Shown in pieces: positions 20-640 of a stretch of DNA of 43,757 nt. The notes below the pieces were generated by a model. The model made no database searches. It was not told the origin of the DNA and saw nothing but the letters and a program-made list of their open reading frames with translations. The stretch lies in the sequence record MT682706.1. The stretch is one strand, 5' to 3'. A program made the translations under genes and the position numbers. Position 1 is the stretch's first letter. Every line of letters begins with the position of its first letter. The stretch is from Escherichia phage vB_EcoS_FP.

Positions 20-640
20 TTATGGATTGTTGCAGATATTGCAATGATTCACATGATTATTGCACATATATCAATATTGCATCAGATGCAATGATGTTTT
101 TGATTGTTGCGAAAAGTGAAATGAAGTGGGGAGTTAGTGAATGAAAGATGGATGGACTACCATACAAGTTGATTTTGATTCTTTCTGAGCTATTTTCACG
201 CATACACGTTATAAAAGTTATGCCGTGTAGATGCGCCAGCTCCCCGTGGGAATCGTGTACGTCTATCACGCTAAATTACGCAATGGTTACATAATAATAT
301 CTATACATATCAACCATTTAGTACTATTATTATTATTATTATTATATACGCGTATATAATGTATATAGTGGATATTGGATATTGCGATAGTTTTCTGTGA
401 TTTTTTCCTACACTTGTAGGAATTGGATGACACTGTAGGAATAAATAGGCATATATGGGCCAATGCTCCATGAAAGCCGGTGTACAAGCTATACGCAGTG
501 GTTACATTGAGCTATATCTGGGGTTTGGAACTGAAAAGCGTAAATAAATTGAATTCAACCATAAATAACACTTGATAACATGTAACCTCAATGATACCAT
601 GCACCCATCTTAACGAGAGAAACCAATCAGGAGTATATCT
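20..640. repeat. AT-rich non-coding control region A with ATTGCA/GATTGTTGC repeats, (ATT)n microsatellite, palindrome TTCCTACA-CT-TGTAGGAA and two TACGCNNTGGTTACAT iteron-like sites; homologous to 25345-25720
   Basis: No credible ORF over 620 bp; direct comparison with 25345-25720 shows shared blocks of about 80 bp and about 35 bp; lies between divergent early operons. Confidence 0.7.

Follow-up and report, generated by a model that had tools for sequence, protein, structure and literature searches.

Organisation of the divergent intergenic region

The analysed window (43,757 nucleotides) is the whole genome of a T1-like coliphage (Drexlerviridae, Braunvirinae), and the record opens within a long non-coding stretch. 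Genes run on the minus strand from 43695 and on the plus strand from 641, leaving between them a divergent intergenic region of about 700 bp, here called control region A, in which both the repeat array and the palindrome described below are located. Over positions 1-700, Escherichia phage Msk matches at 95.7% identity, and many other Drexlerviridae (Braunvirinae, Rogunavirinae, Nouzillyvirus) at 77-89%. A region of about 700 bp devoid of conserved ORFs is found at the same place in 17 of 17 relatives, as well as in T1, TLS and SU57. The genes adjoining it encode DUF7174 and a helicase paralogue lacking the ATPase core.

The latter (1162-1707, plus strand), second gene of the rightward operon, is a 181-aa paralogue of the DUF3987 helicase encoded at 40835-42451 on the minus strand. 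Its residues 3-53 share 69% identity with the N-terminus of the helicase, and residues 69-131 (63 residues) share 57% with the C-terminus. An AlphaFold model of the protein (pLDDT 82) contains a winged helix at about 57-125, for which Foldseek returned weak winged-helix matches only, to MukE and archaeal Orc/Cdc6 (E at least 0.03). The paralogue may regulate the helicase or compete with it on DNA. The winged-helix evidence ties neither protein to the array or to the palindrome.

On the right side, a sigma-70-type promoter, PR (TTGATA-17-TACCAT with TG, 572-600, plus strand), drives the gene at 641-1162. Its spacer contains ATGTAACC, the reverse complement of GGTTACAT. Five copies of GGTTACAT are present in the genome (580-587, 285-292, 500-507, 25429 and 25625), four of them in the two duplicated modules described below; the copy in the PR spacer (580-587) is a possible autoregulatory site.

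On the left side, a promoter scan places the -10 hexamer of the leftward promoter PL (TATAGT) at 43723-43728 on the minus strand, ahead of the first minus-strand gene, which runs from 43695. PL heads the operon that ends in the DUF3987 helicase/ATPase gene and, as the earlier note had it, the array lies directly upstream of this promoter. The palindrome TAGCA-N5-TGCTA associated with PL is split by the opening of the record: the first half (TAGCA plus 1 nt) occupies 43752-43757, and the second (AAAG TGCCA, with TGCTA in relatives) runs on at 1-9, both referred to the minus strand, with the centre about 42 nt upstream of the inferred start. The motif corresponds to the 21-nt repeat aaATAGCACnnnTTGnTAAAA of TLS, reported without a function (PMC11447400). 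Fourteen further promoters carry it, each time 22-23 nt ahead of a TATAGT-like -10; this fixed distance, with a centre near -42, matches the arrangement of a class II activator site rather than that of a -35 hexamer.

Sites of this type were recorded at 43752-9, 1704, 2215, 3150, 5318, 25343(-), 27213, 27790, 32608(-), 35596, 37936, 39023, 42493(-) and 42927(-). They are always co-oriented with the downstream gene and followed by a conserved CATCGAAACGA leader. One further copy, at 31549, lies at the start of a minus-strand 848-aa gene but faces the opposite direction, lacks a -10 and precedes a terminator-like hairpin; it may act as a decoy or in both directions. In T1 (NC_005833), a second, rightward-facing TTAGCAAAAAGTGCTAT is present at 105-121, between the array and the module. 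The exact 17-mer TTAGCAAAAAGTGCTAT also occurs in many IMG/VR viral contigs that do not appear T1-like, each time followed by ...GTTGAAAACGGGCCAGAAAATCAGATAATCC, and may be in use beyond Drexlerviridae.

Repeat array, palindrome and duplicated module

The array extends from 24 to 111 and is composed of about seven GATYRTTGCA-type units in both orientations (24-34, 35-43, 54-64, 71-81 and 101-111 on the plus strand, 41-51 and 88-97 on the minus strand). A motif search located ATTGCA at 38, 59 and 76 and TGCAAT at 40 and 87, whereas GATTGTTGC starts at 25 and 102 only, within the entire 43.7 kb. The ATTGCA repeats and the two GATTGTTGC copies reported earlier at 20-130 were thus recovered, with one correction: the T said to precede GATTGTTGC is present at the second copy, but the first reads GGATTGTTGC. 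ATTGCA/TGCAAT reach 5 per 100 bp against 0.11 expected (Poisson probability about 5e-5, corrected for the number of windows). For the looser RTTGCR, 7 occurrences in 7-106 compare with 0.30 expected per 100 bp (about 1e-5); the runner-up cluster in the genome has 4, and none of 200 first-order Markov genomes had more than 5.

Elements beyond those first described include a 17-bp inverted repeat, ATTGCATC-A-GATGCAAT, at 76-92, and the palindrome ATTGCAAT at 38-45, with AGCAAT|ATTGCT (70-81) in relatives. The former, ATTGCA-N5-TGCAAT, is the part of the array kept as far as T1, where it reads GTTGCA-N5-TGCAAC. To the left, the conserved island is bordered by AGATTTATGG (16-25, plus strand), whose GATTTA is invariant across the 17 aligned phages and which includes the 8-mer AGATTTAT common with the pac site of P22. 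To the right, GAATGA (139-144, plus strand), kept in all lineages, stands directly left of the cut zone discussed below, and TGATTTTGATTCTT (170-183, plus strand) is an 86% direct repeat of TGTTTTTGATTGTT at 95-108, so that the pair flanks the cut zone.

Consensus sequences for DnaA, IHF, CRP, ArgR, NarL and RcsB, compared informally by eye, were not matched. A sigma-54 reading of TGGCAC...TTGC at the window start was discarded, also by eye, the spacing being 3 nt and not 5.

Conservation was evaluated on a 17-phage alignment covering three lineages; scans of IMG/VR yielded essentially the same isolates and left this diversity unchanged. The island at 43745-115 shows a mean pairwise identity of 84-89%, with 47-69% invariant columns, compared with 40-65% for the non-coding blocks around it and 41-42% for the starts of the adjacent genes. 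Its left 26 nt are the PL palindrome, an element apart from the array. The repeats are kept in the relatives, and the proposal that they form a protein-binding pattern is borne out to the extent that the array is unique in the genome, conserved at 84-89% across subfamilies and non-coding; it looks like a selected protein-binding array.

Also confirmed were the perfect inverted repeat and the nearby third half-site. The former, TTCCTACA-CT-TGTAGGAA, occupies 405-422 (arms 405-412 and 415-422, 2-nt spacer), and the latter, TGTAGGAAT, lies at 434-442 on the plus strand, always 19 bp after the right arm. No copies of the arm TGTAGGAA occur in the window outside this element. A perfect 8+8 palindrome is in itself unremarkable, with 6 distinct loci in the genome against 3.6 +/- 2.3 expected; half of these loci are terminator hairpins, and the remaining three (76-92, 341-360 and 405-422) all fall inside the 640-bp region. 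In 12 phages, the arms of 405-422 pair in 99% of cells, as in a symmetric site, and the symmetry is kept through two-sided changes at two pairs (7 cells), a score reached by 0 of 500 shuffles. The changed form, TTCTGACA...TGTCAGAA, with two pairs altered on both sides, is that of the 12210I/Sd1/JeanPiccard clade, and CJ19, with one mismatch, stands in between; a single event in one clade probably accounts for both double changes. Throughout, the third half-site stays TGTAGGAA and the 19-bp spacing is invariant; the two arms are separated by 1 or 2 nt.

The third site can also pair with 400-412 (13 nt, 92% complementarity), and the single strand folds the left arm onto it (z = -3.5 to -4.2), a pairing lost in the TGTCAG clade. 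A terminator role for the palindrome was rejected, as neither strand carries a U-run. No promoter-like site was detected at 380-480, the nearest being PR (572-600), 150 bp off. The palindrome is missing in the array-bearing phages IME542, C119, TH21, CY1 and DTL, and its left arm is degenerate in SU57. Its presence does not correlate with that of gene 2: Sd1 has the site and a truncated gene, C119 the gene without the site. The element at 405-442 is most probably a protein-binding site made up of an inverted pair and one additional direct repeat. In T1, a triple ATTATTCCA-N7-TGGAATAT-N-TGGAATAAT is found elsewhere in region A, left of the array, which is a weak hint of a GGAAT-binding factor acting in this region; together with the second TTAGCAAAAAGTGCTAT, it indicates that the order of elements in T1 differs from that of the window.

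The remainder of region A is largely made up of a module with a second copy in the genome. Positions 200-560 share 75% column identity with 25340-25700, so that the two define paralogous non-coding modules (M) of about 350 bp; the second lies in region B, the other large divergent intergenic region. Both modules contain a leftward TAGCA-N5-TGCTA promoter and a rightward promoter, four TACGY repeats spaced by about 10 bp and ending in GGTTACAT, a second repeat set ending in GGTTACATTGAGCTATA and, as the two most AT-rich spots of the genome, a 70-bp core of 84-86% A+T with (TAT)n. In region A, the left set (TACGY/TACAT at 258, 267, 277 and 288; 258-292, plus strand) is shared with 25402-25437. 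The core (291-365; 84% A+T over 70 bp, second in the genome; 77% pairwise identity) includes (TAT)7 at 325-345 and the palindrome ATTATATACG|CGTATATAAT at 341-360. The right set (483-515, plus strand) comprises TACAA at 483, TACGC at 492 and GGTTACATTGAGCTATA at 500-516, with its paralogue at 25604-25641.

The (TAT)n/(TTA)n tracts, of 5-7 units, at 325-345 and 25469-25483 are kept in both modules and in all aligned relatives; simple repeats are seldom so stable, and a structural role, e.g. in unwinding or bending, is suggested. Region B is almost invariant across Drexlerviridae. Co-variation of the M repeats between regions A and B of the same phage was looked for and not found, B being near constant while A varies. 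The two modules are candidate twin origins or twin early control regions.

Region B lacks the array, the cut-zone sequence and the palindrome; what is found in region A only is 16 to about 200, and 400-446. The array is thus single-copy in the genome, as a pac site should be, and, with the cut zone, it appears as an addition to a general control module, placed exactly at the packaging start. The palindrome with its third half-site is a separate accessory element specific to region A.

Packaging termini and the function of the array

T1-like phages package by headful from a pac site (PMC11447400, PMC7718038, PMC8421802), and the terminase pair encoded here is of the headful type. The small terminase (TerS, 4815-5321) belongs to the Pfam family GP3_package, the P22 gp3 family (E = 2.4e-12), and the large terminase (5787-7466) carries a Terminase_6C domain. 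An HNH endonuclease gene (5390-5902; HNH_3, E = 5e-23) separates the two terminase genes and extends over the start of the listed large terminase ORF.

The start of packaging has been located in several relatives. In Msk, PhageTerm identified a terminus at 36,862, on the forward strand only (p = 1.6e-9; PMC8421802). Msk 36703-37402 aligns without gaps to window 1-700, which places this terminus at window 160; the correspondence between the coordinates of the paper and those of GenBank was checked on the 651-nt recombinase gene, 19403-20053, which after the offset coincides with window 27863-28513. The record of UDF157lw (Rogunavirinae) was re-ordered to its PhageTerm terminus (PMC10838988), and its first base is the homologue of window 153. 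The SU57 record was opened at an end set by PhageTerm and a coverage step (PMC7718038); its first base corresponds to about window 178, 18-26 bp off the other termini. Finally, the Rao1 record starts at window 152, without a documented basis for this choice. The four positions define a cut zone at 152-178 (plus strand), 40-65 bp to the right of the array, where a pac site would place the termini of these relatives.

T1 and TLS give a similar picture. The T1 record opens on the first base of GTTGCA-N5-TGCAAC, which is homologous to window 76-92, and an annotated terminal repeat of about 2.8 kb (1-2800) extends rightward from this position. Together with the forward-only terminus of Msk, the direction of this repeat indicates one-way packaging, on literature and record evidence rather than on computed reads. 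In TLS, pac was restriction-mapped to the homologous repeat region (PMC11447400), a TGATT-rich block at the same place, and the record opens in the homologous array. As a caveat, position 1 of T1 is about 80 bp left of the PhageTerm sites.

The termini of four relatives beside the array point to a pac site, and we consider it fairly probable, judging from sequence comparison, that the segment from 16 to about 185 is the pac region of this phage. The small terminase would assemble on the GATYRTTGCA array (24-111), a candidate sequence-specific recognition element whose core would be ATTGCA-N5-TGCAAT and then TGATTGTTGC. The large terminase would make the first cut of each series 40-65 bp rightward, at about 152-178, in a sequence which is not itself conserved between lineages, and headful packaging would proceed to the right. 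We infer from the homologous positions that the same cut is made in this phage, and that the array, rather than the sequence next to it, is recognised by the terminase. The cut zone and its surroundings (152-200) show 53% pairwise identity between lineages; a variable sequence next to a constant array is in keeping with recognition that is specific and a cut, made close by, that is less so. That region B lacks the array weighs most in favour of pac, and most against a general role of the array in transcription or as an origin. The palindrome is probably not needed for pac cutting: the Rao1 sequence, which over the part read (ending before the palindrome site) is of the type of CY1, a phage without the palindrome, has its record start at 152.

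Between Braunvirinae and Rogunavirinae, TerS is 63-64% identical at the amino acid level, while the array, at 83-90% DNA identity, is almost identical. Compared with the TLS-like and T1-like proteins, TerS identity falls to 48-51%, and T1 and TLS carry different, TGATT-rich arrays at the same place, although that of T1 also uses GATTGTTGC and TTGCA motifs. The pattern is compatible with recognition by TerS; however, the array is better conserved than the protein, which falls short of showing a simple co-evolution with TerS, and another or an additional binder, of phage or host, may constrain the array. The array was also sought in 5,426 E. coli genomes, where possible satellites mimicking pac might carry it, and no match was obtained, which leaves the packaging role without support from this type of mimicry.

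The first alternative is transcriptional: the array would hold activator or repressor sites of PL, and the palindrome with its half-site would be the operator of a dimeric phage regulator, such as the Cro-like protein of 172 aa encoded at 32605-33123, controlling early rightward or leftward transcription. The array starts only 6 bp beyond the TAGCA-N5-TGCTA motif of PL and spans about -60 to -160 of this promoter, several of its half-sites are arranged as palindromes, and the phage does encode a P22_Cro-like HTH protein. However, the ATTGCA array was found at none of the 14 other promoters of the PL type, including that of region B, which work without it; no observation ties the array to the control of either transcription or replication. 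As for the operator, the symmetry of 405-422 and the invariant 19-bp spacing speak in its favour, and this part of the original claim may hold; against it, no promoter overlaps 400-446, no regulator gene is adjacent (the candidate lies at a distance of 11 kb, or 10.6 kb counted round the circle), the double changes supporting the symmetry probably count as one event, and the palindrome is lost or degenerate in the relatives named above. Packaging termini beside the array would also be left unexplained. On balance, a transcriptional function is rather unlikely.

A second possibility, which we hold to be unlikely, is that control region A is a composite of the pac signal and one of two duplicated replication origins, the modules M. 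The winged-helix model makes the helicase a plausible origin-binding initiator, and M a plausible origin. Under the composite reading, M would be bound by the predicted winged-helix C-terminal domain of the DUF3987 helicase, and the core-less paralogue (1162-1707) would compete with the helicase or load it there; the TGTAGGAA triple, found in the pac-proximal copy only, would couple or insulate replication and packaging. If true, both the origin and the pac site of T1-like phages would be defined, and the phages would have an initiator regulator of a new kind.

A replication origin based on the array itself is quite unlikely. Its units would be iterons for an initiator, e.g. the winged-helix C-terminal domain of the helicase or the core-less paralogue, and the AT-rich core at 291-365 would be the unwinding element. 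In keeping with this, the repeats are near the second most AT-rich 70 bp of the genome, the position between divergent early promoters is suitable, the helicase C-terminal domain is duplicated in a small protein encoded 500 bp from region A and modelled as a winged helix, and the literature on T1-like phages (TLS, SU57) leaves their replication origin undefined. However, the AT-rich element, with its own four TACGY repeats, belongs to M and is duplicated at 25340-25700 without the array, so that any origin here would be M and not the ATTGCA array. The array units are of mixed orientation, irregularly spaced and 180 bp from the AT-rich core; phased repeats beside an AT-rich element, as iterons should be, are instead the TACGY set at 258-292, separate from the array. 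The Orc/Cdc6 and MukE matches of the model are not significant, and GC skew, which mirrors gene orientation only, is uninformative.

Finally, it is very improbable that the island is conserved for a product, either a short protein rich in Cys (37-55 aa from a GTG at 4, 'VPFVRFMDCCRYCNDSHDYC...') or a small RNA: 12 of the 17 phages have the GTG frame open (12210I only if read from an internal ATG at 22), but it has a variable end, no upstream Shine-Dalgarno or promoter, and is missing in RobRod40, JeanPiccard, C119, AHP42 and e4/1c, which keep the array, and this loss, with variable columns evenly spread over the codon phases (18/19/16), indicates a constraint which is not coding, while a permissive Rfam search of 1-1200 gave nothing credible (top match ES003, E = 0.18, the one weak hint of an RNA) and the array folds as a single strand no better than its shuffles (z = -0.86).

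Comparison with known packaging signals

T1 belongs to the seven classic T phages; it carries out generalised transduction and is a notorious contaminant of laboratories and fermentations. Its pac sequence and replication origin are left undefined in the TLS, SU57 and Msk papers. With a candidate array of about 90 bp and a mapped cut zone, the packaging specificity of the T1 family becomes directly testable. A candidate pac also helps in setting the correct genome start for hundreds of Drexlerviridae records, and could possibly be used for packageable plasmids or for a block of packaging. The gain is incremental, as the element, previously undescribed at sequence level for the T1 family in those papers, is of a known kind.

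The pac assignments of T1, TLS, SU57 and Msk point to the same place, the long non-coding region ahead of the rightward block of small genes, but the descriptions for TLS, SU57 and Msk do not mention the ATTGCA/GATTGTTGC array. In TLS, the analogy with P22 was used to put pac at AGATTT (PMC11447400); in SU57, it was 'not identified' (PMC7718038). In the part of the Msk paper concerned with the search for pac, a prediction of five ATATA repeats in T1 and its relatives is attributed to Wietzorrek et al. (2006), and the repeats are said to be missing from Rtp and Msk (PMC8421802).

Lambdoid operators and iteron origins (lambda OR/OL, lambda ori, P4 ori/crr) likewise have short sites, repeated or palindromic, within a divergent early region. 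Unlike in those systems, there is here no overlapping promoter, no adjacent gene for a cognate repressor or initiator, and no AT-rich element adjoining the array.

Clusters of short repeats around the packaging cut recall the pac site of phage P1. The P1 hexamers flank the cleavage site, carry GATC and are controlled by Dam methylation, whereas the present array has no GATC, the first of the window being at 803.

With P22, the phage shares the Pfam family of the small terminase (GP3_package, about 28% identity to P22-like TerS) and a headful mode of packaging that begins at a unique site, the cuts being scattered over tens of bp about that site or close by. The P22 pac also has in common with the window the 8-mer AGATTTAT, at 16-23, but since it occurs three times in the window this match is at chance level. 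The P22 pac, recognised by the TerS gp3, is a single asymmetric element of 22 bp inside the terS gene; the candidate signal described here is an array of short repeats of about 90 bp, non-coding and 4.7 kb upstream of terS.

In SPP1, the pac region (pacL, pacC, pacR) has repeated TerS-binding boxes on the side which is not encapsidated first; the cut is made tens of bp from the boxes, in a less specific sequence, with more binding sites past it. TerS family, motif and host are unrelated to those of the present phage, where the array is a candidate binding site, but the layout is similar: the array at 24-111, the cuts of the relatives at 152-178 and, at 170-183, the repeat of 95-108.
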